Virus record (IMG/VR): IMGVR_UViG_3300028549_003076
Coordinates: 1-64,000 of that record
Source: a virus
Reading direction: 5' to 3' (one strand)
DNA: 64,000 bases
Shown one piece after another: positions 8,136-26,268 of the stretch (within the stretch, counting starts at the first letter, position 1; the number at the start of each line of letters is the position of its first letter). A program made the translations under genes and the position numbers. The notes under the pieces were generated by a model that saw only the letters and a list, made by a program, of their open reading frames with translations, was not told the DNA's origin and made no database searches.

Positions 8136-8190
8136 ACGGAATTATTAGTTTTCAGTTATTATTTATGAAAATAAAATAATTCATTTGATT

Positions 8191-8616: not shown

Positions 8617-9490
8617 GATGGATAATATTATAAAAAGCATACAAGAAAAAAATGCTGAAAGGGCATTAAACATTTTAAAAGGATTTTCAGAAGTTGATGA
8701 TATTCTTGAAAAAGCAAAAAGTGGAGTTTATGCAGATAATGCAGAAAATCGCAAACTTCAACGTGTTGGTCAAAAGTTTGGTTCAGAAAAAAAGGAAGAT
8801 GAAACATCTGATAAAAAATCTTCAAAACAAGAGGATGATAAAAAATCAGTGAATAAAAAAGTTGATGATAATTCAGACTCAAATAAAAATAATACAAAAC
8901 AAAAACATCAAAAATTTATTGATGAAATTCCTGATGATGAGAAACATGAACAACTTCAAAACTTTATAGATAAAAATCCTAATCCAGAAGATGAAGAAAC
9001 AAAACAACTTGCAAATTCAGCAAAGAGTTGGTTGAAAGAAAATCCTGAATCAGATAATGTTGACCAATCTATGGAGGATAATAAAAAAGTTGAAAAGGAA
9101 GATAAAAAAACACATTCAAAGATTGATAAATTACAATCAACAATAGATGATTTAAAAAATCATACAAATCATCCAAATTCAAGTGATAATGAAAGTAAAA
9201 GTGAAGCTGAGGATAACTTGAACTATATATTAGAGCAGGATTACAAATTAAGTAGTGAGCAACTTTTAGATGCTTTTGAAACTTTTATGGATAATGATTT
9301 AGAATTAGAACATGCTGAATATATTATAAAAAGAGCAAAAGACTCAGGAATAAGTAGAAATAAATTTTTATCATTATTGGAAGACACTACTGAAAATGAC
9401 GAACATTTGGCTAATTTTGAAGCATTGTATGATGATGAAAATGATGACCCAAATGATGAATTTAATAGAGAGCGTGAAAAAGGTCAATAA
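8606..9490 (+). CDS. acidic/charged protein with shared N-terminal leader (possible head-internal protein)
   Basis: LNILKGFSEVDDILEKA is paralogous to the 4304 ORF, with 20 of 21 nt identical over gatgatattcttgaaaa(a/g)gca. An alternative ATG at 8618 gives the same leader length as the 4304 ORF. Confidence 0.6.
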   Translation: MNNKMDNIIKSIQEKNAERALNILKGFSEVDDILEKAKSGVYADNAENRKLQRVGQKFGSEKKEDETSDKKSSKQEDDKKSVNKKVDDNSDSNKNNTKQKHQKFIDEIPDDEKHEQLQNFIDKNPNPEDEETKQLANSAKSWLKENPESDNVDQSMEDNKKVEKEDKKTHSKIDKLQSTIDDLKNHTNHPNSSDNESKSEAEDNLNYILEQDYKLSSEQLLDAFETFMDNDLELEHAEYIIKRAKDSGISRNKFLSLLEDTTENDEHLANFEALYDDENDDPNDEFNREREKGQ

Positions 9491-9506: not shown

Positions 9507-11096
9507 ATGTCAAAAGTCGCACAAGATTTAGAAAAGATTGAATTGCTCCAACAAAAGTTAGGGGTCAAAAAAGGAATATTGTTACAAAAAGCATTATCAT
9601 CTACATCACCAAATGATATATTAAAAGCTCAAAAGGTTTTAGAGGGTGTTGAAAATAGAGAACAAAGTTCAAAAAAATCTTTCATTCTTGACCCATTAGA
9701 TTTTAATCAAGCATTTGGTTATAAAGATAAACCATTTATGATGAGTTATCAGACTTTGAAAAATATGTCAAAGTCACCAATTATAAATGCTATAATAAAG
9801 ACAAGAAAAAATCAAATTGCTGATTTTGCTGAACCACAAAGTGATAGATACTCAACAGGTTTTGTAATTAGAAAAAAACAAAAATTTGGACAAAAACAAA
9901 CTGAACAAGCAATTGAGGAATTAAATAAGATTGAAGAAATAACAGAATTTATTTTAAATTGTGGAGTTAATGAAAATTGGGAAAATGATGACTTTGAAAC
10001 TTTCATTAGAAAAATTGTTGAAGATAGTTTAGTTTATGACCAAATGACTTTTGAAGTTGTTCGTGATTTAAAAGGAAAACCATATGAATTTTTTGCTACT
10101 GATGCTTCAACTTATAGGGTTGCGGATAGTTATAATGATGATGAGTATGTAGGGCGTGAAAGACAACAAATAAAAGGATATTTTCCATCATACGTACAAG
10201 TTTATCAAGGTCAAATAAAAAATGAGTTTTATCCTTGGGAATTATGTTTTGGAATAAGAAACCCATCAACCAGTATTTACAATGTAGGTTATGGAGTATC
10301 AGAACTTGAAGAACTTGTAACAACAATAACATCTATGTTATGGGCTGAGGAGTATAATCGTAAATTTTTCAGTCAAGGTTCAGCACCAAAAGGTTTGTTA
10401 AAAATAAAATCAGGTCAAGTATCAGAAAAACAATTATCAGCATTTAGACAAGAATGGAATGCAATGATTCAAGGAGTTTCAAATTCTTGGAAGACACCTG
10501 TTGTTGAAGGAGATATAGATTGGATTGATTTACAAAAGAATAATCGTGATATGGAATATAATCAGTGGATGGAGTTTTTAATAAAAATTTCTTGTGCTGT
10601 TTATAATATTGACCCAAATGAAATAGGTTTCAACATAAATTCTGGAAATAGTAAAGAAATCTTTGAAAGTAATAATGAAGGAAAATTAAAACATTCAAAA
10701 GACAAAGGGTTGTATCCTTTATTGAAATTCATTCAAAGAAAAATAAATAAATACATTGTAAACCAACTTGACCCAAACTATGAGTTTTTGTTTGTAGGTT
10801 TAAATGGAATGACTTTACAAGAGGAACTTGAAATGGATATTAAAAAATCATCATCACTTTATACAGTTAATGAGATACGCAAGTCAAGAGGTGATGATAA
10901 AATAGATGGAGGAGACATTATACTCAACCCTACTTTTACCCAATCTAAAATGATGGCAGAACAAGCTGCTCAGCAAGGTGATATGGGTTCAGGAGAAGAT
11001 GATTTTGATATCAATCCATTCTTGATGGATGATGAAGATGTTGAAGAAGATGATAATCCATTCTTGAAATCATTTTTAAATAATATTAAAAAGTAA
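9507..11096 (+). CDS. portal protein
   Basis: 529 aa. The core GVSELEELVTTITSMLWAEEYNRKFFSQGSAPKGLLKIK...LSAFRQEW...GVSNSWKTPVVEG..DWIDLQ..NRDMEYNQW..FLIKISCAVYNIDPNEIGF fits the HK97/SPP1-type portal pattern. Acidic C-terminus. Confidence 0.85.
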   Translation: MSKVAQDLEKIELLQQKLGVKKGILLQKALSSTSPNDILKAQKVLEGVENREQSSKKSFILDPLDFNQAFGYKDKPFMMSYQTLKNMSKSPIINAIIKTRKNQIADFAEPQSDRYSTGFVIRKKQKFGQKQTEQAIEELNKIEEITEFILNCGVNENWENDDFETFIRKIVEDSLVYDQMTFEVVRDLKGKPYEFFATDASTYRVADSYNDDEYVGRERQQIKGYFPSYVQVYQGQIKNEFYPWELCFGIRNPSTSIYNVGYGVSELEELVTTITSMLWAEEYNRKFFSQGSAPKGLLKIKSGQVSEKQLSAFRQEWNAMIQGVSNSWKTPVVEGDIDWIDLQKNNRDMEYNQWMEFLIKISCAVYNIDPNEIGFNINSGNSKEIFESNNEGKLKHSKDKGLYPLLKFIQRKINKYIVNQLDPNYEFLFVGLNGMTLQEELEMDIKKSSSLYTVNEIRKSRGDDKIDGGDIILNPTFTQSKMMAEQAAQQGDMGSGEDDFDINPFLMDDEDVEEDDNPFLKSFLNNIKK

Positions 11097-11100
11097 AAAG

Positions 11101-12975
11101 ATGACTGAAGAACAAATTAGAGGAACAAAAAATTTAGGTTTAATTCAAGCAATTCATGCTGGAACAAGTCCACCATTGAATACAAAGATAATTTGGTATG
11201 ATGATAATTTAGGTCAAAAAATACACAAATATTATAAAGTAGAAATTTCACAATGGGTACCATTTGGAGGTAGTGGTTCAATAACTATTAATGGACATTA
11301 TGTTTATATTGCTTATTCAAGTAATTGTTCTGGTGCTGATTTTGATTTAGATTTTGATTCACAAATACATAAATATTGCTCAATTCATTCATCAGTAACA
11401 GCAATACCTGTACAAAATGTAAATAATGAACTTTTTGAAGGAAGATGGATACCATTATGTTCTTTATCAAAAGGTGGTAATTATACATACATTGCATTTG
11501 CTGATAATTCTAATGGAGATAATTTTTCATTAGAGCCAACATATGAAGTAGATTGTGCAAAATGTGATTATGTTGATTTGATGACAAGTCAATCTGAGAA
11601 TTTAAGTTTTGTTAAAAATCAAGATGGTTTTAATGTTACTATACAAAATTTAGTTACTCCAACAACTTTGGAAATTGATTTATCTATTTTAGGTGAATTA
11701 TTACAAATAAATGAAGAACATTGTATTGAATTACAAATACCTATTTTAAGATTCAATTTTAATCTATCTATGGATTCAAATGAGGCAATAGGGTATCAAG
11801 TTGTTCCAAATGGATTTTCTCAAATTTTAAATTTCAAATTAACAAATAAGGATTCAAAATTATACATAAATTTAACAGACAAAGCATTTGTTGATAGTTT
11901 TGAGTTTTTTATAAAAATAGGCACATCAGGTTGTTGTTCAAAAGAAACTACTGAAAAATGTTTTGAATGCAGAACATGTATTGGAATAATTACTTCAACA
12001 GCTCCTATTGTTGATTTAATAAAAGAACACTTTGAAGGAAAATGGTTTTGTGTTTGTTGTGACAAAGGAAGTGATAATTCAGCTGAATTAGATAGTATTA
12101 AAAATTTGATTAATAATATCTATGAAAATCAACAACTGATAAATACAAGCAATTCTGTATCAATTCAAAATTTAACAAATCAAATACAGAATTTGAATCA
12201 ACAAATTCAAGATTATTATTCAAACACAAATCAAAGTTTGAATAGTTTTTATAATCAAATACAACAAATAGTAAATAATCAAAATAATATTATTGATGAT
12301 TATTATAATGTTTTACAAGAACAAAATACTATTATTCAAAATTTCATTGATGAATATAATAATCAAAATCCTATTGTTCAACAAGGAGTTTGTAAAGTTT
12401 TTGGAAATTTAGATTTTAGTTGGGGTGGTGGTGATAAAAAAGATGAAAATGTTTTAAGAAGTGTTGTAATTGATGATGAAGATGGAGTACAAAGTCATAT
12501 TTTAAGAGTTTTTAATTTAATAATAAAAATACCTTATTGGAATGAAATATCAAAATATGAGCCAATATTACTCATTGACAGATATAAAAGAAAAGGAAGT
12601 CTTGGTTCAAATAGACGATTAAAATCAGGATTCAAACATGAAACAAACGACAGTGCTGATTTGAGCGGTAGAATTTCTGAACTTCAAATATCACAAAGTA
12701 TTAATTATTTGAATTTCATACAAGAAAAATATTTTGGATATGTTAATGGAAAATCATTTTCAAAAGGTATGGGCTCAAGAAATAAAGGAAATTCAAATAC
12801 TTGGTTTCAAGATGAAAATGATAAACGTGGAAAAAAATTATTTTCTGAAGCATATGTTTATTTGAGTTTCAGATTGAGATTGAAAATAAGTAATGAAGAA
12901 ACTATTGAAACAGGAAGTTTAGGAATATTAAAGATGTATATATTGAATGGTAAAATAACTTACAAAATTCAATAA
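11101..12975 (+). CDS. fibre-like virion protein with repeated Y-x-Y-I-A-[YF] modules and Asn/Gln-rich coiled coil
   Basis: 624 aa. Modules YVYIAYSSNCSGADFDL...LFEGRWIPLC, YTYIAFADNSNGDNFSL and ...HFEGKWFCVC. Central region NQIQNLNQQIQDYYSNTNQSLNSFYNQIQQIVNNQNN. Confidence 0.5.
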   Translation: MTEEQIRGTKNLGLIQAIHAGTSPPLNTKIIWYDDNLGQKIHKYYKVEISQWVPFGGSGSITINGHYVYIAYSSNCSGADFDLDFDSQIHKYCSIHSSVTAIPVQNVNNELFEGRWIPLCSLSKGGNYTYIAFADNSNGDNFSLEPTYEVDCAKCDYVDLMTSQSENLSFVKNQDGFNVTIQNLVTPTTLEIDLSILGELLQINEEHCIELQIPILRFNFNLSMDSNEAIGYQVVPNGFSQILNFKLTNKDSKLYINLTDKAFVDSFEFFIKIGTSGCCSKETTEKCFECRTCIGIITSTAPIVDLIKEHFEGKWFCVCCDKGSDNSAELDSIKNLINNIYENQQLINTSNSVSIQNLTNQIQNLNQQIQDYYSNTNQSLNSFYNQIQQIVNNQNNIIDDYYNVLQEQNTIIQNFIDEYNNQNPIVQQGVCKVFGNLDFSWGGGDKKDENVLRSVVIDDEDGVQSHILRVFNLIIKIPYWNEISKYEPILLIDRYKRKGSLGSNRRLKSGFKHETNDSADLSGRISELQISQSINYLNFIQEKYFGYVNGKSFSKGMGSRNKGNSNTWFQDENDKRGKKLFSEAYVYLSFRLRLKISNEETIETGSLGILKMYILNGKITYKIQ

Positions 12976-13159: not shown

Positions 13160-13483
13160 ATGTGTAAAAAATGTAAAGATTGTAATTGTGGTAATTTTAC
13201 CTATATAGGTTTTGCTACTGATTCAACAGGGTCAAATTTTAATTTGAACAGAACAACAGGAGGTATTAAAAGATGTTTTCAAGCAACAATTACATCACCA
13301 ACTGAATTAGATGTAAATAATACTTTGTTTAAAAATTATTTTTTTCAAAGATGGATTAATATTTGTAAACCAAATTTTACATTAGATAGTATTGACCCAA
13401 AATGTATAACTACAAAAAATGTATGGAGTGTTTTGTCTGATGAACAAAGAATTCAACTTTTAGTTGATGAAATTTGTAAATAA
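13160..13483 (+). CDS. hypothetical protein carrying one copy of the fibre-protein repeat module
   Basis: FTYIGFATDSTGSNFNL......LFKNYFFQRWINIC parallels the modules in the 11101 ORF. Confidence 0.55.
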   Translation: MCKKCKDCNCGNFTYIGFATDSTGSNFNLNRTTGGIKRCFQATITSPTELDVNNTLFKNYFFQRWINICKPNFTLDSIDPKCITTKNVWSVLSDEQRIQLLVDEICK

Positions 13484-13588: not shown

Positions 13589-14056
13589 ATGTTAACAACA
13601 AATCAAACAATAAAAAAGTATGGCCAACCACATTTGACTGGCCACCCTTATTTAGTAACAATTAATTTACCATATCCTATGCGACTTGCTTGGGATACAA
13701 AATCAACTGTTACAAGAATGTCTTGTCATAAATTAGTTGCTAAAAATTTTGAATTAGTTTTCAAAGATTTATTAGCACACTATGGATTAAAAAAAATACA
13801 AGAATTAGGAATTGACTTATTTGGAGGATGTTTTAATTTTCGTAAAATGCGTGGTGGAAGTGCTTGGAGTAAACATTCTTGGGGAATTGCTATTGACCTT
13901 GATCCTGCCAGAAATACATTAAAAGAAACTTCAAGAACAGCAAGATTTGCAAGACCAGAATATAAACCAATGATTGATATTTTTTATAAACACGGATTTA
14001 TATCATTAGGTGTTGAAAAAAATTATGATTGGATGCACTTTGAAATAAAAGAATAA
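13589..14056 (+). CDS. endolysin, peptidase M15 family (Zn D-Ala-D-Ala/L-Ala-D-Glu peptidase type)
   Basis: [13 protein letters not shown] and DWMHFE give the H..D...H zinc-ligand pattern of M15 peptidases. It heads a cluster of membrane-protein genes. Confidence 0.8.
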
Positions 14057-14376
14057 TGAAATATAAAAAATACATACAAACCATTCCATTTATAATATTA
14101 TTAGGAAATTTCATTTATTCAGTAATTATTTATAATTATTGTTCTGAAAATGTTTCTATGGTTTTAGGTCAAATTTTCTCATTCTCCTTATTGACAAATA
14201 TTGAAAGAACATATTATGTTTTTAAATTCAAATTTTGTTTGTATTCAAAGATTGCTAATGTAGGTTTACACCTATTAATACTATTAAATTTGATATACTG
14301 CTCAACTAATTTAATTGATGATTATTATTTTAATCTTTATGATAAAATAATTTGCTCAATTTTTTTTGTTTTTTAG
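14056..14376 (+). CDS. small multi-pass membrane protein
   Basis: 106 aa, mostly hydrophobic segments, inside the lysis cluster. Confidence 0.55.
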   Translation: MKYKKYIQTIPFIILLGNFIYSVIIYNYCSENVSMVLGQIFSFSLLTNIERTYYVFKFKFCLYSKIANVGLHLLILLNLIYCSTNLIDDYYFNLYDKIICSIFFVF

Positions 14377-14423
14377 TGTATTATTTATGAGTAGTAATTT
14401 GAATAAAAGATTTAACAAAAATT

Positions 14424-15047
14424 ATGATAACTAAAATTATGTTTTCGCTATTACAAAAATCATTAATTTACAAAAATGGTAGTTTGTTTACTTTAAGTTT
14501 TATGGGTGCAATATCTTTTGATTTCATCATAAAAGAAATGATAAAAGGAATTGAATTGAAAAGATTGTATCTTTCAGTAACAATTGGAGCAGTAGGTTTT
14601 TTAATTTATTTATTATTTTCAATAATTGACTTCATAACAGGTATGCAAGCAGCAAAACAAGAAACTCAAACATCTGGTAAAGTTTTTGTTCCAAAGTCAA
14701 AAATGATGTACAGAACACTTTGGAAAATTACAGGACTTACACTTTTGATAGTATTATTAACAATGTTATTATTAGTAGTTCAAATTGGACAAATGGATTG
14801 GCTATATAAACCTGTTATTTTATCATTATTAATATTGATATTTTTAGGTTGTGGATTTGAATTTCATAGTATAGGAGAAAATATTGAAAGACGTTCAGGC
14901 AAACGTCCTGAAATATTCAAATTCTGGGAAAGGTTGTTATCAACTATTGAAAAAAGAATAATGAAAAACATAAATGATGCAGTTTGTCCAACTGATGAAG
15001 ATTTAAAAGATAAAAACAATAAAGATGAACCAACTGAACAAAATTAA
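14424..15047 (+). CDS. holin-like membrane protein
   Basis: About four hydrophobic segments. IIDFITGMQAAKQE resembles the D.iTG..aA motif of the phage_holin_4-type family. Charged C-terminal tail. Confidence 0.5.
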   Translation: MITKIMFSLLQKSLIYKNGSLFTLSFMGAISFDFIIKEMIKGIELKRLYLSVTIGAVGFLIYLLFSIIDFITGMQAAKQETQTSGKVFVPKSKMMYRTLWKITGLTLLIVLLTMLLLVVQIGQMDWLYKPVILSLLILIFLGCGFEFHSIGENIERRSGKRPEIFKFWERLLSTIEKRIMKNINDAVCPTDEDLKDKNNKDEPTEQN

Positions 15048-15760: not shown

Positions 15761-15984
15761 AAAAAGGAGAACAAGATTTGAAACAAAAGGAAAATAATAA
15801 AATTCTAAAACAGAATGATGCAATTCTGAATACATTTATTTCTGAAAAGCAAAAAAGACATGTGAAGGAACCGCAAGAAAAAATATTCAAAAATTTAAAC
15901 AATAAATTTATTGAAAATTATGGTAAATTAGTTGTAGCAAAAACTACAAAAGAAATAATGAAATTTTCAAAAGATGGAATTTAA
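15757..15984 (+). CDS. hypothetical protein (non-ATG start)
   Basis: Only TTG starts are available (15757 or 15778, the latter 6 nt after aaggag). No motif recognised. Confidence 0.35.
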   Translation: MKKGEQDLKQKENNKILKQNDAILNTFISEKQKRHVKEPQEKIFKNLNNKFIENYGKLVVAKTTKEIMKFSKDGI

Positions 15985-16876
15985 TTTTTATCAAATATCT
16001 AAAATAATTGAGATTTTTTCAAAAAATCAAGCACTATTTATTGGTTCAACAATAGGTTTGGACTACTTAACAGATTATGATAAATTTATACTAAAATTGA
16101 ACGGAATTGATTTAGAAAATATACAACAATTGAATGATATTCAAAGAATGTTTTATTTTGGAATTTATTCAGGAATGTTGGGTGGTAATAATGCTTTCAA
16201 GAAAAAACAAGATGATTTTGAAGAATGGTTAAAAATTGAAATGAATAGACCATTATCATTTCAAAAAAAGAAAGCACTTGATTTCATTAAATTAAGAGCA
16301 TTTAATGATATATCAGGATTAGGCAATAAGATTGTTGGTAAATTGAATAATAAGATATTAACAGCAAATTTAGCCACTCAAAACAGGTTGAGAAATGATA
16401 TAAAGAAAAAAACTATTGAAGCATTTAATGAAAATAAAAATGCTCAACAATTAGCATCTATATTAAGAGAATTAACAGGAGATTGGGCAAGAGATTTTTC
16501 AAGAATTGCTGATTATGTTCTACAAGAAGCATATGCTCATGGAAGAATGGAGCAAATAAAAGAAATGTATGGTGATGATTGTAAAGTTTATAAACAAACA
16601 TTTCCAGGAGTTTGTAAACATTGTGAAAAAAATTATGGTAGTCCTGGTGAGGAACCAATAATATATACTGTTGATGAGTTATTAGCAAATGGTGATAATA
16701 TAGGAAGAAGTGAGCAATTACCAGTTGTTGGCCCAGCACATCCATGGGCACGCTCAATACTACACCCTATTCCAGAAGGATATATTTGGAGTGATGAAAT
16801 GAAAAGATTTGTTCCATCAAGACAAACTCATGGAGTAAAAAGAAATAGCAAAGTTAAGGTTACTATAACGGAATAA
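15974..16876 (+). CDS. MuF / SPP1 gp7-like minor head (head morphogenesis) protein
   Basis: 300 aa. DWARDFSRIADYVLQEAYAHGR, a Cys pair GVCKHCEKNYG, and PVVGPAHPWARSILHPIP where the H.NCRC-type motif of the family sits. Lies in the head-gene neighbourhood. Confidence 0.6.
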   Translation: MEFNFYQISKIIEIFSKNQALFIGSTIGLDYLTDYDKFILKLNGIDLENIQQLNDIQRMFYFGIYSGMLGGNNAFKKKQDDFEEWLKIEMNRPLSFQKKKALDFIKLRAFNDISGLGNKIVGKLNNKILTANLATQNRLRNDIKKKTIEAFNENKNAQQLASILRELTGDWARDFSRIADYVLQEAYAHGRMEQIKEMYGDDCKVYKQTFPGVCKHCEKNYGSPGEEPIIYTVDELLANGDNIGRSEQLPVVGPAHPWARSILHPIPEGYIWSDEMKRFVPSRQTHGVKRNSKVKVTITE

Positions 16877-16886
16877 ATTTTATATA

Positions 16887-17561
16887 ATGGACAAAAAGAA
16901 AAAAGTGTTGTTAATTCAACCACATTCGGATGATATTCTATTTTCAGCAAGTAAATTTTTATTTGAAAGTAGAAATTATAAAAAAGTAAAAATGCTGACT
17001 GTTGAAAATGTTAGTGAAAAAAGATTAGAGGAAGATGTTGAATTGTGTAAACATTTTAATATTGATTTATTATTATTAGATACTAAAATTTCATCTGAAG
17101 ATTTTCACAAAGAGTATTATTCACAATATAAAGAAATGGATGATGTTGATTGTTTAAATTTTTGTAAAAAGAAAATAGGTTCAAAAAATATAAATAAACT
17201 TGCAAAGGAATTAATAAAAACAATCAACAAACATAAAGAAAATGGTTATTTAATTGTTTCTTGTCTTGGAGTTGGACATCCATTTCATTGGTTAGTAAAT
17301 TTTTTAACAGCTGATTATTCAGATTTATTTTACAGAGATTTTCCTCATTCTTTTAAAAGAAGGAATCAAAACTATTTCAATTTTGTAACTGAGAATGAAT
17401 TTGATTTAGATTTTAATCATTTTGAGGATAAAGAACATTCTGAAAAATTTGAATTGATTTCAAAGTTTTATAAGTCACAAAAGTCATTATTATTTTTTGA
17501 AAAAAGATATATTGACAAGAAACTACCAGAACAATTTTTTAAAAAGAAAAAAGATGAGTAA
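16887..17561 (+). CDS. PIG-L/LmbE-family deacetylase
   Basis: VLLIQPHSDDILFSA matches the (A/P)HPDDE motif region. A second His motif, GVGHPFHW, is present. Confidence 0.7.
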   Translation: MDKKKKVLLIQPHSDDILFSASKFLFESRNYKKVKMLTVENVSEKRLEEDVELCKHFNIDLLLLDTKISSEDFHKEYYSQYKEMDDVDCLNFCKKKIGSKNINKLAKELIKTINKHKENGYLIVSCLGVGHPFHWLVNFLTADYSDLFYRDFPHSFKRRNQNYFNFVTENEFDLDFNHFEDKEHSEKFELISKFYKSQKSLLFFEKRYIDKKLPEQFFKKKKDE

Positions 17562-18984
17562 AAAATTAAAAATCAGAATTTGCACATTTGACATTGCTAA
17601 ATATGGAGGGATAATTCAAAATGTTGAAAGTAGAATAAAAGCATTTAAACAAATGGGTCATGATGTTGATATAATAATGTTAACATATCAAAAAACAATA
17701 TCAACAAGTTCATTTGAAAGAAAATTGAAAGACCTTGAATCAAATAAATTTCAAGATGATAAAGATTTGAAAAGTCAAAATGGTGGTTATTCAAAATCAC
17801 CAATTACAGGATATTGGAGAAATTCATACTATGGTTGGCATCTTCCACCAGTTACAAACAAAATACCAGTATTTCATGAAGATGCTTTAAAAATGTGGCA
17901 TGATGCAGTAGATGATTGTGATATTGTTTTTTGGTCATTTACTCCTACTAAAACAAGTGAGGCAAAAGGTTTTGATTTTTGGCCAAAATTTTTTGATTTA
18001 CCAAAAAGTGTAAAACAAGTAATGGCAGTTCATGATGGATATTTTGATGTAAGAAATAGTTGGGTAAGATATTTAGCACCAAAAATAAAATATCTTGATT
18101 GTGTTCATGTTAGTGCTTATAATGCTGTTGAGAATTTTGAAATTCCAAGATATTTGAATTTTGCTTCAAGATTTATTCCTGAAAAATTACCACTAAAAAG
18201 TTTTGAAAAGAAACCTATTGATTTTTTTGCTGCACATGTTTTTAAGTCAATGAAAAAAATTGAAGACATATTATTATCATTACCTTATTTAGATGGTGAA
18301 AACAATACTGTAATTGCTGGTTCAGGCATAGAATTATATTATATGATAATGGATGATGAAACCAAATTGAAACCAAATTATAAAATTTCTAAAAAGAATG
18401 ACCCAGATTGTAAAGAAAAGGAAATTGGAAAATCTATTTGGAAACGTGCAGAAAAAAATGGAATGGAGTTTGTTGGTTTTTTAAGTAATGAGCAAGTTTA
18501 TAAATATTTAAGAAATTCAAAATTTGCAATTGACCCATCATTCAGTAAACATTATGCTCAATACTCAAATACTCATTTGAATGGTTTTATTATTGAAGCA
18601 ATTATAAATGGCTCATATCCTGTATTGCGTGATACAGTAGGTATGGTAAAACATGATAGAGAAATCGATGATATAATTTTTAATGAATTGAGAGCAATCT
18701 ATATTCCTTGGGATGCAACTCCAAAACAATTTGCTGAAAAGTTGAATGAAGCAAAAAACATGTCTGAAAGTAAGTATAAAAAAGATTTGATTCATAACTT
18801 CAAATTAGCACAAAAACTTTTTGACCCAATAAAAAATATGAGTGATGTAATAACACTTTCAAAAGTAAAAAATATTGAGGATGTTTTAGAAGTAGGTTCA
18901 AATTCAGACAAAGTGATAAATGATTCAGAAAAAATAATGAAAGAATTTTTCAATTGTGAGTTGCCTATTAAATGGAGTCATTGA
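17554..18984 (+). CDS. GT-B fold glycosyltransferase (GT4-like)
   Basis: Start taken at the ATG at 17554 (MSKKLKIRICTFDIAKYGGIIQNVESRIKAFKQMGHDVDII, typical of a GT4 N-terminus). C-terminal NGFIIEAIINGSYPVL matches the E..G.P motif region. Overlaps the deacetylase gene by 8 nt. Confidence 0.7.
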   Translation: MSKKLKIRICTFDIAKYGGIIQNVESRIKAFKQMGHDVDIIMLTYQKTISTSSFERKLKDLESNKFQDDKDLKSQNGGYSKSPITGYWRNSYYGWHLPPVTNKIPVFHEDALKMWHDAVDDCDIVFWSFTPTKTSEAKGFDFWPKFFDLPKSVKQVMAVHDGYFDVRNSWVRYLAPKIKYLDCVHVSAYNAVENFEIPRYLNFASRFIPEKLPLKSFEKKPIDFFAAHVFKSMKKIEDILLSLPYLDGENNTVIAGSGIELYYMIMDDETKLKPNYKISKKNDPDCKEKEIGKSIWKRAEKNGMEFVGFLSNEQVYKYLRNSKFAIDPSFSKHYAQYSNTHLNGFIIEAIINGSYPVLRDTVGMVKHDREIDDIIFNELRAIYIPWDATPKQFAEKLNEAKNMSESKYKKDLIHNFKLAQKLFDPIKNMSDVITLSKVKNIEDVLEVGSNSDKVINDSEKIMKEFFNCELPIKWSH

Positions 18985-19034: not shown

Positions 19035-20471
19035 ATGAATAAAATTAGTGAAACATTAAAAGATGTTATTCAAAAAGCAAAACCAAATGTAGGTGATACA
19101 AAAGTTGGTAAAGATGGTATTACAAGAAAATATGTTGAGTACTCACCAGGAAAGTTTGACTGGAGAAAAATAAAAGATGATGATGAGAAAAAATCAGCAT
19201 CTAAAACAACAACATCTGTTGACCCAAGTAAATTTGCAGCAGTAATAAAAAAGACTGAAAGTAGCAAATTGTCTAATATGGCAAAAAATCCTAAAAATGC
19301 TCCAAAAGTAAGACAAGCTGCTTATGATGAGTTAGTTGAACGTGGAGAAGATGTATCAGAAATTGATTTAGATACAGGAAGATATGGTATGATGAAACAA
19401 GCATTTGGAGTTGATCAAGATGGTGATGACTTCAAATTATCAGATGGTGGTGTTAGTTTTGATTCAGAAGATGATGAAGATATTGATTGGGGTGATCCTG
19501 ATTTCATCAAAAAGGAATTTGGAGGTTTGAAAACAAAAAAACAAAGGGTTGAATATGATAAATTTGTAACTCAACAAAAACAAAAAGACCCAAGATATAA
19601 AACACCTATTCAAGAAGTTCATCAATTAAATAAATTATATGCTGAATTTATTGACACTGATGCTCCATTAATGATTGCTTCAGGTGGTGCTGGTGTTGGT
19701 AAAACTTTTAACTTTCATTTAGTTGCTGAGGCATTTGGAAAGAAACCATTTAATCCTGAATATGATACTCCTGGTGATAGTGATTATGATTATTATGAAG
19801 CACCAGAAGTTACTCCTGCTCAACTTATTCCATTATTGAAAGAACATAATGGAAAAATAATTCTTTTTGATGATAGTGATGCTATATTGAAAGACCCAGG
19901 AGCATTAGGTATTTTGAAAAAAGCAACTGCTACATCAGGTAAAAGAATGGTTGGAAGACAAACATCATCAGATGCAACAACAATCCTACCATTTGAGTTT
20001 ACAGGAAAAATTATTTTCTTGACAAATATGAGTCAATCTGCTTTAACAAAAAATGATGATATGAAAGCAATATCATCAAGAGCATTAAAAAAAGATATTT
20101 ATTTTACAAAAGAAGAGCAATTATTTTTCATTGAAAAATTAAAACATAAATTTGAATTTACAGGTGTTCCGAGATTAGAAAACAAAGCTGAAGACATTCA
20201 GGAGCGTGAAGAAGTTTTTCAAATTTTAAGTGATAATTTTGAAAACATAGACCCATTGAAATTTAATTCAAGAAGTATGAAAGAGGCAATTCAGATGAAA
20301 CGTGCTAATGACCGTGCTAATGAAAAAATAAAAAATGACCCTGTTATGGGTAAAATGCTTTTTGGAGACAATGCAGATTGGAAGGAAGAAGTTGTTGATT
20401 TTCTTGTGAAAGGATATACTGCAAAAGAACAAAAAATTGAAAAAGCAAAAGAAATTTTACATTTAAGTTAA
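19035..20471 (+). CDS. AAA+/P-loop ATPase with N-terminal VGxTKV..DWRK module
   Basis: Walker A ASGGAGVGKTF, Walker B KIILFDDSD, sensor-1-like IIFLTN, Arg at AISSRAL. N-terminal VGDTKVGKDGITRKYVEYSPGKFDWRK. Confidence 0.65.
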   Translation: MNKISETLKDVIQKAKPNVGDTKVGKDGITRKYVEYSPGKFDWRKIKDDDEKKSASKTTTSVDPSKFAAVIKKTESSKLSNMAKNPKNAPKVRQAAYDELVERGEDVSEIDLDTGRYGMMKQAFGVDQDGDDFKLSDGGVSFDSEDDEDIDWGDPDFIKKEFGGLKTKKQRVEYDKFVTQQKQKDPRYKTPIQEVHQLNKLYAEFIDTDAPLMIASGGAGVGKTFNFHLVAEAFGKKPFNPEYDTPGDSDYDYYEAPEVTPAQLIPLLKEHNGKIILFDDSDAILKDPGALGILKKATATSGKRMVGRQTSSDATTILPFEFTGKIIFLTNMSQSALTKNDDMKAISSRALKKDIYFTKEEQLFFIEKLKHKFEFTGVPRLENKAEDIQEREEVFQILSDNFENIDPLKFNSRSMKEAIQMKRANDRANEKIKNDPVMGKMLFGDNADWKEEVVDFLVKGYTAKEQKIEKAKEILHLS

Positions 20472-20476
20472 AATTT

Positions 20477-22738
20477 ATGTCAAAAGAAATCTTTTTAAAA
20501 TCACTACAAACTATTGCCTTTGCTAATATGAATAATCAAATTGATGATATTCATTTAGTGAAGGCATCTGATAGTTATAAAAGTAGAATAAATTTCAAAA
20601 GTGATTCAAAATACTTATTAATAAAATCTAAAACATTTAACAACTTCATAAATGGAAATGATAATCCTCAATCTTTAATGAAAGCATTGGTTGTAGGTGA
20701 AACAAAAATTCAAAACGGAGTTTTATATGTAGTAAAACAAATTAATGGTAAAGGTGGTGTTTATTTAGATTGGAGAAAATCAAATAAACAACCTAAAAAA
20801 ATTGTTGATGATGAACAAGGAAACGATTTATTTGATGTAGATGATTTTCCAAAACTTGGAGACATTACAGTAATAAAATCACTTGGTGGTTCAACAGGTG
20901 CTCAACTTGTTGAAGATAAACAAGGAAATAAATTTGTAATGAAAAAGGGTGCTTCAAAAGAACATGTTGAAGAGGAGTATCTTGTAAATTCAATATATAA
21001 ATTGATGGGTGTTAATGTTCCAACAATGAAGTTATACAAAACTCAAAGTGGTTCATTAATATTGTCAAAATTTATGGAGAATACAACTCCATTAAATAAT
21101 GTAATGGATGACCAATATTTGGAGGAAGTTACTGAACATTATGTTTTAGATTGTTTATTGGCAAATTGGGATATTTATAAAAATGATAACATTTTAGTTG
21201 ATGATGACTCAGGTGATATTGTTCGTGTTGATAATGGGGGTGGATTAAGATATTCAGCACAAGGTAGATTGAAAGGTCAAAATTTCGGAAACCAAGTTGA
21301 TGAAATTGAAACCATGTTGATAAATAATCCACATTTAGCATCAGAAGTTACAACAACAAAAATTAACAAACAAATTAAAGAAATATCTAAAAATCAAAAA
21401 AAGATATTAGATTTAATTGAAGATGATGATTTAAAATTAACAATGAAGATGCGTATTGCAGATTTAAAAATGATTTTAAAAAATGCAAATATTGTTAATG
21501 ATGACCCATACAGAGAGTTGGATGAAAAAGAACTTGAAAAAGCAATGAATAAAGCAAATAATGATTTGTTTAGTTCAAATGATTTAGAGGGTTGGACTTT
21601 TTTATCTGAAATATGTAAAATGAGAGGTTTCAATGGTAAACCTACTGTTGTTGATGAAAAGGAATTCAAAAAACAATTAAAAGATAAAAACACTACACAT
21701 ATACAGAGAGGATTATCTCCATATGGAAATAGAACAGCAAAATCTTTAATGAATGATTTTACTGATTCAGAACATTGTTTTTATGGAAAAGCTGGAATTT
21801 ATGGTGCTGGAATTTATGGTGCTGTTAATGCTGATAAAGATTTATCAAAACCAAACCATGTAGCTGTTGATTATGCTAATTATAAGAATGAGCATATTTT
21901 AGACATTATACTACCAGCTGATATGAAAATTGCTGATGGTAAGGAACTTGATGAAATGATGAATGAAGAGTTTTTTGGTGATGAATTTAAAGAAGCCAAG
22001 AAAGATTATGACAAAGCAGTAGATGAGTTAAATTCCAATAAAAAACGTAAAGAAGATATTGAAAAAGAAATTGAACAAGAAGTAAAAGATGAACTTGGAT
22101 GGAATGAAAAAAGTTATGAAATTTTAAGAAAATCAAAACCAGAGGAAGTTTATGCAGATACTGATAAATTTTCTTTTGATAAAGTTGCTAATTATTTCAA
22201 ACCAATACTAAAATCAATTAATGGTAAAGTTGAAAAAGTTGATTCACAAAATTATAAAATAACACTACCAAACTCACAAGATGAATTTTTACTTAATAGT
22301 AGTATTGCTTCATTAAGTTTAAAACAAAAAAATCAAAATCTAACACCATATAATTATCATTATGTTAGATTGAAGGAGTTTTTAATGAAAGAGCATTTTT
22401 CAAAAATTAAAAAAGTAGTTAATGAAAAAATAAAATATGAATCAAGAAATAATCAAAAAATTTTAGATGCAATTTCAGATATTGAAAAATCTGAAAATGT
22501 ATTGAAAGTTATGTCGGACAATATACAAAATCTAAAAACATCAGGCTCAAACGCTTTGAATAATGTTATGGCTCAAATTGCAAAAAGACCAGGAGGGGAA
22601 TTCAGAGGTTACTATGCTGCAATCAAAGGTTATGATGCAATTATTCAGAAAAATGGTTGGGGTGGTGATACTGATTTTTGTATAATACTAAACAGAAGTA
22701 AAGTAATTGTAAAAGAACATAATAATGATAAAAAATAG
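20477..22738 (+). CDS. fusion protein: shared N-terminal module + protein-kinase-like domain + ADP-ribosyltransferase-like C-terminal region (tentative)
   Basis: Kinase-like motifs: GGSTGAQLVEDKQGNKFVMKKG (Gly loop + Lys), LDCLLANWDIYKNDNILV (catalytic loop) and VRVDNGGG (DFG equivalent). C-terminal HIQRG...YGKAGIYGAGIYGAVN...GYDAIIQKNGWGGDTDFCIILNRSKVIV is reminiscent of Alt/polyvalent-type ART domains. Confidence 0.5.
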   Translation: MSKEIFLKSLQTIAFANMNNQIDDIHLVKASDSYKSRINFKSDSKYLLIKSKTFNNFINGNDNPQSLMKALVVGETKIQNGVLYVVKQINGKGGVYLDWRKSNKQPKKIVDDEQGNDLFDVDDFPKLGDITVIKSLGGSTGAQLVEDKQGNKFVMKKGASKEHVEEEYLVNSIYKLMGVNVPTMKLYKTQSGSLILSKFMENTTPLNNVMDDQYLEEVTEHYVLDCLLANWDIYKNDNILVDDDSGDIVRVDNGGGLRYSAQGRLKGQNFGNQVDEIETMLINNPHLASEVTTTKINKQIKEISKNQKKILDLIEDDDLKLTMKMRIADLKMILKNANIVNDDPYRELDEKELEKAMNKANNDLFSSNDLEGWTFLSEICKMRGFNGKPTVVDEKEFKKQLKDKNTTHIQRGLSPYGNRTAKSLMNDFTDSEHCFYGKAGIYGAGIYGAVNADKDLSKPNHVAVDYANYKNEHILDIILPADMKIADGKELDEMMNEEFFGDEFKEAKKDYDKAVDELNSNKKRKEDIEKEIEQEVKDELGWNEKSYEILRKSKPEEVYADTDKFSFDKVANYFKPILKSINGKVEKVDSQNYKITLPNSQDEFLLNSSIASLSLKQKNQNLTPYNYHYVRLKEFLMKEHFSKIKKVVNEKIKYESRNNQKILDAISDIEKSENVLKVMSDNIQNLKTSGSNALNNVMAQIAKRPGGEFRGYYAAIKGYDAIIQKNGWGGDTDFCIILNRSKVIVKEHNNDKK

Positions 22739-23177: not shown

Positions 23178-24698
23178 ATGTCAAAATTCAAATTTTATAC
23201 TCCTTTTGAACTTATTAAAGCCAAAGATAATTCTGGTAACACAGTTATGAAACTTGGCGGAATTGCTTCAACTATTGATGAAGATGCTGATGGGGAATAT
23301 CTTGACCCAGATGGGTTTGATGTTAATGACTTTTTAAAAGTAGGTTTTGTTAATTGGCATCACCAAGCAAAAAATAAACCAAAAACTATTGTAGGTGAAC
23401 CATCAAAAGCAGAAATTCGCAAAGATGGTTTTTATGTAGAAACTACTTTATATCCTTCATCAGATACTGCTAATGAAATTTATGAACTTGCTCAAATTCT
23501 TGAAAAAGATAGTAAAACAAGGAGATTAGGTTACAGTATTGAAGGTGATGTTGTTGAAAGAGGAAGTGATGATAAAACTCATCCTGATTATAAAAAAATC
23601 AAAAAAGCTGTAATTACAGGATTAGCAATTACACATATGCCTAAAAATCCTAAAACTTTTGCTCAAATAATAAAAGGTCATGTTGAAGAAGATGAAGAAG
23701 ACAATGAAGATGATATTGAAAAAACTTTAACAACTGAAAATTCTGGTGGAATAGCAAAAGAGTCATTAAACAAAGAATTGAAAGTTCAAGTCAATAAAGG
23801 TTTTTCAATAGTTGAATTATCAGATGAAAAAATGTATGACAAGATATTTGATACATTTACAGATATAAATATTGAGAAAGCAGAGAAAGTTTTTAAATTA
23901 ATTTCAAAAGTACGTTCAGATATGAAACAAAATGTAAATGAGGATAAACTCAATAAAGCCATGGATGCTTTAGGATTAAGTGTCGATGAAAATAATCCTT
24001 TTTTAATTAAAGGAAAATCATCTGAAGATGATGATGAAAACGATGATAAAGGCAAAAAATATCAAAAAATTGCTGACAAAATTCAAAAAGAAAATTATGA
24101 TGATGAATCAGACAAAGATGATGATTCAGAGTCAGATGAAGATGATTCAAAAGAAGTTAAGAAATCAAAAGATGCTGATAAAATCTTAAAATCACTTGAA
24201 GGAAACAAAGGTTTGTATTTACTTATTGATAAAAAAATTGAAAAAGCAATTTCTCAATCTTCAAAAGAAAATTCAGCACTTGGAGTTTTAACATCTTCAT
24301 TACTTGAAGAAAACAGTTTATTAAAAGGTCATATTGAAAATCAATCTTCAATGCTTGAAAGACAATTTGAAGTAATTAATGAACAAAATGAATTAATTAA
24401 AGGCATTGTTGAAAAAATGGAGAGTTTTGGAAGTACTCCTGCTCCAAGAAAATCAATAGTGAAAGGTTTTTCAGAAAAAGAAAGTTTTTCAAAAGGTGTT
24501 GAAAATACAAATGGAAATGTTTTAAGCATTTCTCAAAACAAACATCAAATTCTTGAAATACTTGACCAAAAAACTTTTGCAAAAGGTTTTGATGAAGAAA
24601 TGTCAAAGGCAACAACAGGTTTTGAATCATCAAATACTTTGCCATCTAATGTAATTCAAAGATTAAGATTAGAAGACAATATAACGATAACTCAGTAA
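23178..24698 (+). CDS. prohead protease fused to scaffold-like acidic coiled-coil region
   Basis: The N-terminal ~170 aa fits HK97-type prohead protease (LGGIASTIDEDADGEYL..., VNWHH, LGYSIEG, ITGLAITHMPKNPKT). The remainder is Asp/Glu/Lys-rich and helical. Sits immediately upstream of the capsid gene. Confidence 0.75.
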   Translation: MSKFKFYTPFELIKAKDNSGNTVMKLGGIASTIDEDADGEYLDPDGFDVNDFLKVGFVNWHHQAKNKPKTIVGEPSKAEIRKDGFYVETTLYPSSDTANEIYELAQILEKDSKTRRLGYSIEGDVVERGSDDKTHPDYKKIKKAVITGLAITHMPKNPKTFAQIIKGHVEEDEEDNEDDIEKTLTTENSGGIAKESLNKELKVQVNKGFSIVELSDEKMYDKIFDTFTDINIEKAEKVFKLISKVRSDMKQNVNEDKLNKAMDALGLSVDENNPFLIKGKSSEDDDENDDKGKKYQKIADKIQKENYDDESDKDDDSESDEDDSKEVKKSKDADKILKSLEGNKGLYLLIDKKIEKAISQSSKENSALGVLTSSLLEENSLLKGHIENQSSMLERQFEVINEQNELIKGIVEKMESFGSTPAPRKSIVKGFSEKESFSKGVENTNGNVLSISQNKHQILEILDQKTFAKGFDEEMSKATTGFESSNTLPSNVIQRLRLEDNITITQ

Positions 24699-24720: not shown

Positions 24721-26205
24721 ATGAATCCAGGATTAAATTTGCAAGATTATGCAAAAGCAGCTGCCAACGTGCCATCAGCTGTTTTTGGTGGTTCATCTAT
24801 GGATGAGCTTAATCAATTACAAAAAGCACTGGAGGCAGGTTCAATCACAGGTAGGGAGACCACTGGGATGGGCAATGCGTCTGGAGCACCTTTGAAAGTT
24901 GAAAGTTTAGATAAAAACTTAAAACATTTGACTTTCAATGAAGAAGACATCAAATTGTGGAAAATGATTCCTAAAAAAGCAGCATACAATACTGTTGAGG
25001 AATACAACCAATTAGTTGATTATGGTCAACAAAGAGGTGGTTTTTACAATGAAGGAGAACTTCCAAATGAAGAGGAAAGTCAATACATGAGAAAAGCACA
25101 ATTAGTGAAATTCATGGGGGTTGTGAAATCTGTTACTCACCCTATGACTTTGGTAAACACTAATGTTGGTAACATCATTGACCGTGAAATCAAGAATGGA
25201 ACACTTTGGATTTTGAGACAATTAAACAAATCATTGTATTTTGGTGATGAAAGTTTAGTTCCTCAAGAATTTAATGGATTCATTGCTCAACATCAAAAAA
25301 ATTCTGGTTTCACTGATTTAGATAGTTACTTCAATTCAGATGTTGTAATTGATTGTAGAGGTGAACAACTTCAAGAAAAATACATTGAAGATGCTGCTAA
25401 TGGTATTATTCAAAACTTTGGATTAGGAAACCAATTATTCGCTCCACCAAAAGTTTTATCAAACTTTGTTAAAAACTTTTATGGTAACAAATTTATTCAG
25501 CCAAATTCTAATCAAGTTGCTGCTGGTGTAATGGGTCAAAGAGTTAAGGAATTTGAATCTCAATTCGGTAACATTGGTTTAAATTGGGATATTTTCTTTA
25601 ACAAGAAACCATCAAGAAAAGTTGTAAATGGACCAACATCTCAACTTGCTCCAAATGCACCTACATTAGCTGCTGTAACATCAGTACCTACTGATGCTTC
25701 AAGTAGATTTGTAGCAGACGATGCTGGAGATTATTTATATGCAGTAGCAGCTGTAAATAGATATGGTGAAACTGTTATTGTTCCATTTGCTACTCCATTA
25801 ACAGTTGTTTCTGGCGGTGCAGTTGATGTACAAGTTACAGATGGTGGTGGAATTAATCCTGCTACATCTTATGTAGTTTACAGAACTAAAAAAGGTGTTA
25901 CTGATACTGCTGCTGAATTTTATCCTTTGTTTACTATTTCAAAACAAGAATTAATAAACGGATATGATGGTGCTGCTCAAGGTAGTTTGAGAGACAAAAA
26001 CAGATGGTTGCCGGATACAGATCAAGCGATTTTATTCCAAATGAATAATGAAGTGATTGAGTTTGCTCAACTTGCTCCACTTATGAAAATGGATTTAGCA
26101 TTACTTGCTCCGTCTTATAGATTTATGATTTTACTTTATGGTACTCCATTCTTATATGCTCCTAAAAAGATGGTAAGAATTGTTAACATAGGTGAAAAAC
26201 TGTAA
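24721..26205 (+). CDS. major capsid protein
   Basis: 494 aa, directly after the protease-scaffold gene. Less AT-skewed codon usage than its neighbours, and followed by a strong terminator. The fold cannot be verified by eye. Confidence 0.8.
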   Translation: MNPGLNLQDYAKAAANVPSAVFGGSSMDELNQLQKALEAGSITGRETTGMGNASGAPLKVESLDKNLKHLTFNEEDIKLWKMIPKKAAYNTVEEYNQLVDYGQQRGGFYNEGELPNEEESQYMRKAQLVKFMGVVKSVTHPMTLVNTNVGNIIDREIKNGTLWILRQLNKSLYFGDESLVPQEFNGFIAQHQKNSGFTDLDSYFNSDVVIDCRGEQLQEKYIEDAANGIIQNFGLGNQLFAPPKVLSNFVKNFYGNKFIQPNSNQVAAGVMGQRVKEFESQFGNIGLNWDIFFNKKPSRKVVNGPTSQLAPNAPTLAAVTSVPTDASSRFVADDAGDYLYAVAAVNRYGETVIVPFATPLTVVSGGAVDVQVTDGGGINPATSYVVYRTKKGVTDTAAEFYPLFTISKQELINGYDGAAQGSLRDKNRWLPDTDQAILFQMNNEVIEFAQLAPLMKMDLALLAPSYRFMILLYGTPFLYAPKKMVRIVNIGEKL

Positions 26206-26217
26206 TTAACTCATAAA

Positions 26218-26227
26218 ACAAGTATTA
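26218..26227 (+). promoter_or_regulatory. ACAAGTAT(T/A)A box
   Basis: acaagtatta, 13 nt after the capsid stop codon and immediately before the terminator hairpin. Confidence 0.3.
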
Positions 26228-26229
26228 AG

Positions 26230-26268
26230 AAACAGGTGGTGGTTGGAAAATCATTACCTGTTTTTTAT
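26230..26268 (+). terminator. rho-independent terminator after the capsid gene
   Basis: aaacaggt...acctgttt stem around a ~17-nt loop, followed by tttttt. Confidence 0.7.

Follow-up and report, generated by a model that had tools for sequence, protein, structure and literature searches.

We analysed a gene at positions 20477 to 22738 of a virus genome, IMG/VR record IMGVR_UViG_3300028549_003076, within a window of 64,000 nucleotides (positions 1 to 64,000 of that record). ORF calling and translation gave a single ATG-to-stop open reading frame (ORF) on the + strand that codes for 753 amino acids, as an earlier note on this DNA had proposed from the letters, and its length of 2.26 kb in a window with a G+C content of 26.8% indicates that the ORF is not a chance event. 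The encoded protein has 107 full-length homologues with 26 to 63% identity, found on phage-sized metagenomic contigs of 86 to 126 kb. It joins a short N-terminal module, here called the tag, to an atypical protein-kinase-like domain and to an ADP-ribosyltransferase (ART)-like domain that is split by a long helical insert. Our preferred reading, to which we give a probability of about 0.5, is that the protein is a late-expressed head cargo that would be ejected and would act on the host with two enzymes. The modules are arranged along the gene as follows.

20477-22738, + strand: whole gene, tag plus kinase-like domain plus split ART-like domain (ORF, 107 homologues, AlphaFold model)
20477-20788, + strand: N-terminal domain, residues 1-104, made up of three helices together with a hairpin unit of three strands (model secondary structure, hairpin profile)
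20789-20836, + strand: acidic disordered linker, residues 105-120, from the tag to the enzyme domains (predicted local distance difference test, pLDDT)
20837-21496, + strand: predicted atypical protein-kinase-like domain, residues ~121-340 (Foldseek, invariant motif residues)
21626-21937, + strand: predicted ART-like core, N-terminal half, residues 384-487 (model, invariant columns, weak PARP alignments, fold of an uninterrupted homologue)
21938-22585, + strand: 216-residue insert, residues 488-703 (model, alignment)
22586-22735, + strand: predicted ART-like core, C-terminal half, residues 704-753 (invariant columns, model)

The AlphaFold model of the protein, built with a 71-sequence alignment, has a mean pLDDT of 91.2 and shows four modules, namely the N-terminal tag, a kinase fold, an ART-like core and the 216-residue helical insert that splits this core. 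Residues 105 to 112 are the sole stretch of at least three residues with a pLDDT below 50, and one may speculate that the linker to which they belong (residues 105 to 120) serves as a processing site. The motifs quoted in the earlier note were all recovered at the positions that it gave: GGSTGAQLVEDKQGNKFVMKKG at residues 137-158, DCLLANWDIYKNDNILV at residues 225-241, VRVDNGGG at residues 249-256, HIQRG at residues 408-412, YGKAGIYGAGIYGAV at residues 436-450 and GYDAIIQKNGWGGDTDFCIILNRSKVIV at residues 718-745. In the alignment, their quoted residues are invariant columns among the homologues. Searches of the full 753-residue protein against PHROGs, NCBIfam and Pfam returned zero matches above threshold, and four of the four modules lie outside the coverage of these libraries.

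Kinase-like domain

In the model, residues ~121-340 form an alpha/beta domain that ends in a small helical portion, and a helical linker comes next. The Foldseek comparison that had been suggested as a check was run with the full model against the PDB, and all of the top 50 matches were protein kinases (E 5e-4 to 4e-3, probability 0.99 to 1.0). The highest template modelling (TM) scores, normalised by target length, were those of the bacterial kinases HipT, CtkA and 7vkb (0.41 to 0.47). The invariant positions include the Gly-rich loop (G137-G138-S-T-G141), K156, E167, D225 and N230, D237-N238 and D252-N-G-G, and these motif residues do not vary among 71 family members or among 12 distant copies, which include copies fused to portal or Mu F domains. 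Judged from these columns, the set of residues for nucleotide binding and phosphotransfer appears complete, and D225, D232 or D237 are candidates for the catalytic base.

Membership in a curated kinase family is not supported: PI3_PI4_kinase, the sole Pfam signal of the 753-residue protein, stays below threshold (E 0.005, 17.1 bits versus a cut-off of 27.1). When a kinase-only profile was compared with PDB sequences, only the N-lobe of PKA was retrieved (E 0.36). At fold level, the model gives solid support to a predicted kinase fold with its active-site inventory, and the kinase-like domain that had been read from the sequence holds at that level.

The domain shares its compact kinase fold, Gly-rich loop and Lys plus Glu pair with the HipA/HipT/CtkA, PI3/PI4-kinase-like, Rio and Bud32/PRPK kinases, and the likeness to HipA/HipT/CtkA and other atypical kinases extends to an Asn-x-Asp...Asn catalytic region and a Mg-binding Asp. 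It differs from them in its DFG equivalent, which is Asp-Asn-Gly-Gly, and in having its own GGSTGA loop, ANWD and RxDNGG signatures. The kinase family described in polyvalent phage proteins has a reduced C-terminal lobe and occurs in polyvalent and stand-alone forms in the Bacteroidetes and the Verrucomicrobia-Chlamydia lineages (PMC5512222). Our module shows a similar phyletic pattern and similar architectures (stand-alone copies of 220 to 400 residues, Parachlamydia/Protochlamydia proteins from metagenome-assembled genomes and polyvalent fusions), but the markers of the described family, a conserved Gln in the N-lobe's final strand and a His-to-Asp insert, are unrecognisable in the target when it is set against the description only.

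Elsewhere the kinase module is found fused to Phage_portal, Portal_Mu, Phage_portal_3 and Phage_Mu_F domains. Four proteins (P0108, P0109, P0111 and P0114) combine it with ART-PolyVal or ADPrib_exo_Tox in the same polypeptide, often together with portal or Mu F, and it also lies within gp117 of the cultured Pseudomonas phage Dolphis, a 1,222-residue 'ADP-ribosyltransferase', and within a 2,253-residue protein of coliphage ECML-606-1. In another phage, a stand-alone copy is located among early and replication genes, a position that would fit a need for the kinase early in infection, whether this is served by early expression or by packaging.

A further stand-alone kinase-like module was observed among conflict genes of a 1.27-Mb bacterial contig (L009, gene 8001-8741), where its neighbours are ankyrin-repeat proteins, an LHH toxin, a MazG-like protein and an anti-Pycsar Apyc1-like protein. 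Its presence there suggests that intracellular or symbiotic bacteria, or prophages of theirs, make use of the same kinase family.

ART-like domain and its insert

The C-terminal region of the model contains a beta-sheet that begins at residue 384, is interrupted by the insert and is completed behind it. Residues 384-487 form a strand-helix-strand-helix-strand-strand unit, and residues 704-746 contribute a helix and three strands, an order of strands that agrees with an ART fold. Strand 1 carries the invariant R411-G412 and strand 2 carries G445-I-Y447, strands 3 and 4 are next, strand 5 starts with G718-Y-D720, and the last strands hold L738-N739-R740-S-K.

With the full-length profile, PDB sequences gave only influenza HA2, spike HR1 and designed helical bundles, all of them over the insert, and we rejected these matches as noise from coiled-coil composition. 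A profile from which the insert had been deleted retrieved only PARP15 from the same sequences (E 2.4). The weak alignments to tankyrase and PARP15 place R411 on the catalytic His of the PARPs and GAGIY on their donor-site loop. Searched against 5.8 billion proteins, the insert-deleted core profile found natural uninterrupted versions of the domain, which have only ~45 residues where the target has its insert. Six of these homologues (P0121, P0124, P0125, P0129, P0132 and P0139) match at E 1e-14 to ~1e-3 over 94 to 97% of the core each, with P0121 and P0124 at E 1e-14 to 5e-13 (P0124 at E 5e-13 over 96%). The Arg, the Gly-x-Tyr, the Asp and the Leu-Asn-Arg are invariant across the interrupted and uninterrupted forms, D720, N739 and R740 among them, and the conserved ART-like triad is probably Arg411-Tyr447-Asp720.

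The fold of the uninterrupted homologue P0124 was predicted with a pLDDT of 83.7 and a predicted TM-score (pTM) of 0.83, and this model was used for the Foldseek check of the ART domain. All of the top 11 PDB matches are toxins of the ART superfamily that use nicotinamide adenine dinucleotide (NAD+), namely Xre-RES, cholix toxin, NatT, exotoxin A and MbcT, and PARP2 and cholera toxin rank lower; the check thus points to the expected fold, but with weak scores throughout (best E 0.035). Among viral predicted structures, P0124 matches uncharacterised phage proteins (E 2e-8 to 1e-4), a Microbacterium phage 'capsid maturation protease and MuF-like fusion protein' (E 5e-5) and an 'ART-PolyVal-like' protein (E 9.7e-4, probability 0.98), followed by five more ART-PolyVal entries (to E 0.1) and an iridovirus PARP-like protein. 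We regard a predicted ART fold, with a split beta-sheet that would bind NAD+, as moderately supported.

The earlier note had likened this domain to ARTs of the Alt/polyvalent-protein type, and while the fold can be kept at this moderate level, the type cannot. The Ser-Thr-Ser and Glu/Gln-x-Glu motifs of Alt/VIP2 are absent from the target, in which strand 2 reads G-A-G-I-Y and the acid is the single Asp of G-Y-D. ART-PolyVal, in turn, is defined by His-Tyr-Asp (PMC5512222). The Tyr on strand 2 (Y447) and the Asp on strand 5 (D720) are present and invariant, but the strand-1 His is replaced by the invariant R411, and the alignment columns nearby contain no conserved His. The likeness to ART-PolyVal/Tox-ART-HYD2 (PF18760) comprises a strand-2 Tyr in a G-x-G-aromatic loop, a strand-5 Asp in 'GYDAxI', a conserved Asn near the C-terminus and the same genomic habitat, whereas the Arg in place of the strand-1 His, the 216-residue insert and the missing profile match set the target apart. 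Compared with the PF18760 domains of P0108, P0109 and P0111, the insert-deleted profile gave nothing with HMMER and a probability of 0.1 to 0.3% with hhalign, the latter with a thin four-sequence template. By eye, 'GYDALIQ...PNQVK' in the second ART-PolyVal domain of P0109 and P0111 resembles the C-terminal motif of the target; we set this 'GYDA[IL]IQ...N..K' likeness aside as an unproven resemblance that neither HMMER nor hhalign supports. On its motifs, the ART-like domain appears to lie outside both named families, ART-PolyVal and Alt/VIP2.

The insert, which had been described from the sequence as a coiled-coil insert of ~200 residues, is confirmed in the predicted structure as a mostly helical segment of 216 residues (488-703). 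It consists of long helices and a small beta subdomain (residues 584-607), has conserved KQKN and PYNY motifs, measures 211 to 236 residues in all 71 aligned homologues and gave no match in the family libraries. It interrupts the core between strand 4 and the helix and strand that carry D720. The ARTT loop of C3-like toxins and the acceptor loop of PARPs occupy the same position and are involved in target choice. By analogy with the part that these loops play there, the insert is most likely a target-recognition arm.

In P0139, the ART-like module lies downstream of an 'NCRC' sequence that we read as a probable Mu F-type motif. An unrelated group of myoviruses has stand-alone ART-like copies within its head modules, adjoining Mu F and a protease fused to ART-PolyVal. 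In two loci of that group (L007, 683-2695, and L008, 4169-6268), we observed a prohead protease (Peptidase_S78_2) that bears an ART-PolyVal domain as a fusion and has as neighbours Peptidase_C1 and Gln_amidase proteins and a stand-alone Arg-Tyr-Asp ART-like protein, which makes for a head module crowded with candidate enzyme cargo.

N-terminal tag

The hairpin core of the tag, VGETKIQNG...YLDWRK, spans residues 73-101 of the target, and the tag consensus is ..EKA..VG[DE]TKVG.DG.TRVW....GKFDWRR. Besides the target, the tag profile identifies two genes in the window.

19035-20471, + strand: adjacent upstream gene, 478-residue P-loop/AAA-like protein with the tag at residues ~13-53 (tag profile, phrog_1250)
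4304-5146, + strand: third tag-bearing gene, 280-residue Lys/Asp/Ser-rich protein in the terminase-portal interval (tag profile, E 2e-25)

A module shared with neighbouring proteins, as reported in the earlier note, is thus present, but in two other proteins and not in three: the product of the adjacent gene (E 2e-17) and that of the gene 15 kb upstream. Three different profile searches over all six frames of the window found no fourth copy. The adjacent protein has a Walker-A-like GGAGVGKT motif and matches phrog_1250, a family of unknown function; its orthologue in L002, a relative with the same order of genes, has 709 residues, a weak AAA hit and the tag. We consider this product a candidate second cargo protein. 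The 280-residue protein is largely low-complexity and has no family hits, and it carries the best-scoring copy of the tag; its relatives are the top hits of an exhaustive tag search. In that search of 1.84 billion representatives, the tag was found in 52 protein clusters, nearly always within the first ~100 residues of proteins that range from 87 to about 750 residues and have otherwise uncharacterised bodies. Pfam, applied to 41 tag-bearing proteins, recognised only AAA, in three of them, and the partner domains gave no functional clue.

All three tagged genes of the window lie between the terminase (TerL) and the protease, and the four tagged genes of L002 all lie upstream of both the protease gene and the gene for the major head protein. 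That three otherwise unrelated proteins share the tag is easier to explain if it is a sorting signal. Our results lead us to entertain, as a possibility that we consider doubtful, that the tag is a portable capsid-targeting signal with which a Bacteroidota myovirus clade loads separate cargoes (an AAA-like ATPase, the kinase/ART protein and a Lys-rich protein), as a non-covalent alternative to Mu F and portal fusions, and that the Arg-Tyr-Asp domain with its 216-residue arm represents an unnamed ART clade with a target class of its own.

Genomic setting

All genes of the window are on the + strand. Those that place the target among the head genes are the following.

409-2088, + strand: large terminase
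9507-11096, + strand: portal
13589-15047, + strand: M15-family peptidase (Peptidase_M15_4, E 5.5e-10), then two small hydrophobic membrane-like ORFs
15974-16876, + strand: possible Mu F-type minor head protein, 300 residues, at the start of the gene run with the target (orthologue hit)
16887-17561, + strand: PIG-L-like ORF, N-acetylglucosamine (GlcNAc) deacetylase family (Pfam, E 0.002, below threshold)
17497-18984, + strand: glycosyltransferase group 1 (GT1)-like ORF (Pfam, E 8e-4, below threshold)
23178-24698, + strand: prohead protease/scaffold fusion (phrog_1028, E 2.5e-30)
24721-26205, + strand: major head protein (phrog_752, E 5e-90)

Unknown genes, including the tagged ORF 4304, lie between the terminase and the portal, and an ORF of 137 residues lies between the target and the prohead protease. 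Head-tail genes come after the major head protein, and then the tail sheath at 30017. The target starts 5 nucleotides past the upstream stop and overlaps the downstream start. The first terminator-like site on the + strand after the target is a hairpin at 26226-26267, with 19 pairs and then a T run, directly after the major head protein gene, and it is the sole strong site in the 13- to 27-kb interval. Given this gene spacing and the placement of the terminator, the target is most simply read as part of a late head operon. A scan for sigma-70 promoters was uninformative, with 89 sites versus 92.6 expected and with Bacteroidota promoters not modelled.

Identities of the major head protein are 46% with its counterpart in Bacteroides phages DAC19-23, 41% with that in Chryseobacterium phage MA9V-3 and ~37% with those in SPO1-like phages, and by these matches we class the phage as a Bacteroidota-type myovirus. 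The order of genes in L002 matches that of the window (a 310-residue protein, PIG-L-like, GT-like, tagged AAA-like, target homologue), with the protease/scaffold and major head protein a few genes downstream of the target homologue. Between the window and L002, the target has about 28 to 29% identity, compared with 58% in the major head protein and 51% in the protease, so that the target appears to diverge faster than the head core, as is typical of host-facing proteins. The L002 orthologue of ORF 15974 (36% identity) matches nearly the whole Phage_Mu_F model below threshold (E 0.038) and the window protein itself has no Phage_Mu_F hit; we tentatively regard ORF 15974 as encoding a Mu F-type protein. 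The PIG-L-like and GT1-like ORFs have 40 to 44% identity to their L002 counterparts and may be a virion glycan-modification pair.

An ORF of 1,459 residues in the equivalent slot of MA9V-3 was considered as a counterpart of the target and rejected, as the two have nothing in common. In that genome (L004, 5233-10332), this unrelated ORF, which is without family hits, is followed by a NUDIX protein, and the slot of the target appears to be variable across the wider phage group.

Proposed function and alternatives

We propose that the 753-residue protein would be made late, docked into the prohead through its N-terminal tag and ejected with the DNA into the host. In other phages, the same enzyme modules are fused covalently to portal or Mu F, and the tag would then serve the same end non-covalently. 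Ahead of all phage gene expression, host proteins would be phosphorylated and host targets would be ADP-ribosylated, or NAD+ would be consumed, with the insert helping the ART-like domain to pick its target, and the purpose would be either takeover of the cell or blunting of its defences. Packaging fits the head-module synteny, the portal and Mu F fusions of the same modules elsewhere and the shared tag. The fusion of the kinase module to portal and Mu F, together with the place of the ART-like module downstream of a probable Mu F-type motif and its structural match to a protease/Mu F fusion, puts both modules inside the capsids of those other phages. As in polyvalent proteins, two predicted enzyme domains are present on one polypeptide encoded in a head module; a carrier domain (Mu F or portal) is absent from the 753-residue protein.

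Several observations weigh against this proposal. Cultured phages contain no full-length homologue of the protein, and the closest cultured relatives lack it altogether. Pfam, NCBIfam, PHROGs, HMMER and hhalign gave zero ART signal, and ten insert-deleted ART constructs searched against Pfam at E values up to 10 found nothing, PF18760 and ADPrib_exo_Tox included. The structural scores for the ART fold are weak (best PDB E 0.035, TM 0.3 to 0.44) and belong to the homologue P0124, not to the split domain of the target. The role of the tag as a capsid-targeting or docking module is one that we purely infer, its partners being almost all uncharacterised. Moreover, the head block also contains the PIG-L-like and glycosyltransferase-like genes and a lysis cassette, none of which needs packaging, and position in this block is for that reason weak evidence.

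The PIG-L-like (16887) and GT1-like (17497) genes, which stand in the same run as the target and are kept with it in L002, suggest a block of modifying enzymes and not of cargo, and the two enzymes of the target might likewise be left unpackaged, being made late and acting in the infected cell on virion or assembly proteins, as a virion-modification set with these two neighbours, or on late host defences. We consider this unlikely, since elsewhere portal and Mu F proteins carry the kinase module as a covalent fusion, the ART-like module follows a probable Mu F-type motif in P0139 and structurally matches a protease/Mu F fusion, and the tag on three unrelated proteins is more readily a sorting signal. 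Alternatively, the protein might have a structural, internal-head or assembly role, with both the kinase-like and the ART-like folds catalytically dead. This would explain why the gene keeps its place in the head module throughout the whole phage clade, as structural genes do, why the His that defines ART-PolyVal is missing and why every curated enzyme model fails. We consider it very unlikely: K156, E167, D225/N230, D237/N238 and D252 as well as R411, Y447 and D720 stay invariant down to 26 to 28% identity while all around them drifts, and such drift around invariant catalytic positions is the signature of retained chemistry.

Two further alternatives concern the chemistry rather than the place of action. 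The C-terminal domain might be an NADase or NAD+ phosphorylase like RES, MbcT or NatT, or a modifier of nucleic acids, all of which would be compatible with packaging. Its best PDB match is a RES toxin, NatT and MbcT are within the top nine, and the invariant strand-1 Arg is shared with RES toxins; some phage ART-fold proteins may indeed be NADases or NAD+ phosphorylases (PMC9503650). We nevertheless judge this quite unlikely: all scores are weak and the protein ARTs cholix toxin and exotoxin A score equally, the viral matches are ART-PolyVal-like proteins, a drain on NAD+ at the start of infection would bring the phage little gain, and a macromolecular substrate is suggested by the size of the insert at the target-recognition loop. 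The kinase-like domain, for its part, might act on a small molecule, a lipid or a nucleotide in the manner of PI3/PI4 kinases or aminoglycoside kinases, as could be read from the sub-threshold PI3_PI4_kinase signal (E 0.005), the only one in Pfam, and from a model in which the C-lobe is just a small helical part and an activation segment cannot be recognised. With protein kinases as its structural neighbours and the best TM-scores going to the Ser/Thr kinases HipT and CtkA, this is highly improbable; a polyvalent-protein kinase family of similar phyletic pattern, possibly the same one, was likewise judged closest to protein kinases (PMC5512222).

Relation to known systems

It has been predicted that polyvalent proteins with ARTs and kinases are carried in virions (Iyer, Burroughs, Anand, de Souza, and Aravind 2017; PMC5512222), and in them ARTs are the commonest protein-modifying domain and the kinase family is one of four listed (PMC5512222). 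Like the target, these proteins are phage-encoded and head-associated, carry several predicted host-directed enzyme domains per polypeptide and are predicted to be delivered with the DNA, and the kinase module of the target is found in classic polyvalent architectures (P0109, P0111, P0114, the ECML-606-1 protein and Dolphis gp117). In contrast to them, the target has two enzyme domains only, has a short hairpin tag instead of a Mu F, portal or other carrier, and is a fixed syntenic gene of one phage clade and not a shuffled giant. The idea that a kinase and an ART in one head-proximal protein had not been described does not hold, as such proteins are already in the databases (P0108, P0109, P0111, P0114 and Dolphis gp117); the combination in one head-associated protein is not new, and the concept has been published as a computational prediction.

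T4 Alt, a packaged ART, is the experimental precedent and a functional model for the target: it is made late, packaged in a myovirus head, injected, and modifies host proteins. In both proteins, the strand-1 Arg is followed by Gly. They have no detectable sequence homology, however, and in the target Gly-x-Gly-Ile-Tyr stands for Ser-Thr-Ser and Tyr-Asp for Glu-x-Glu. Alt is targeted by a capsid-targeting sequence that is cleaved. More generally, phage ARTs are enriched in myoviruses, and about 44% of them are in contexts that suggest head packaging (PMC9503650).

The T7 gp0.7 kinase, which disarms many defence systems by promiscuous phosphorylation (PMC13645617), provides a functional precedent for a phage kinase that acts on many host proteins at the very start of infection. 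It differs from the target in belonging to a different kinase family, in being expressed early and not packaged, and in having no ART partner. Homology between the two was rejected, there being no sequence or PHROG link.

What is new here is a conserved, compact and carrier-less version of this combination that is fixed in one Bacteroidota myovirus clade, a predicted ART-fold family with an Arg-Tyr-Asp triad outside the curated models and with a large insert at the presumed target-recognition loop, and a short N-terminal module common to three head-block proteins that is a candidate capsid-sorting signal. The gain is a variant with a good experimental handle and not a new principle. If the protein is packaged and active, it would offer a tractable case of two protein-modifying chemistries on one polypeptide at DNA entry, in a group of phages, relatives of the gut Bacteroides phages, in which takeover and anti-defence have hardly been explored. 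Naming the four modules would annotate several hundred database proteins, the tag, if its sorting role holds, could serve to bring foreign proteins into phage particles, and the Arg-Tyr-Asp triad with the insert would widen the range of active sites and substrate recognition in the ART superfamily.

Other features of the window

The peptidase and the two membrane-like ORFs at 13589-15047 look like a lysis cassette, in an unusual place between the portal and the remaining head genes. Just after the portal, at 11101-12975, an ORF of 624 residues contains Cys-rich repeats whose motif resembles 'Y.YIAF..N..G..FSL' (YVYIAYSSNCSGADFDL and YTYIAFADNSNGDNFSL, for example). Neither this ORF nor the small ORF at 13160-13483 has family hits, and the latter repeats the same motif (FTYIGFATDSTGSNFNL).

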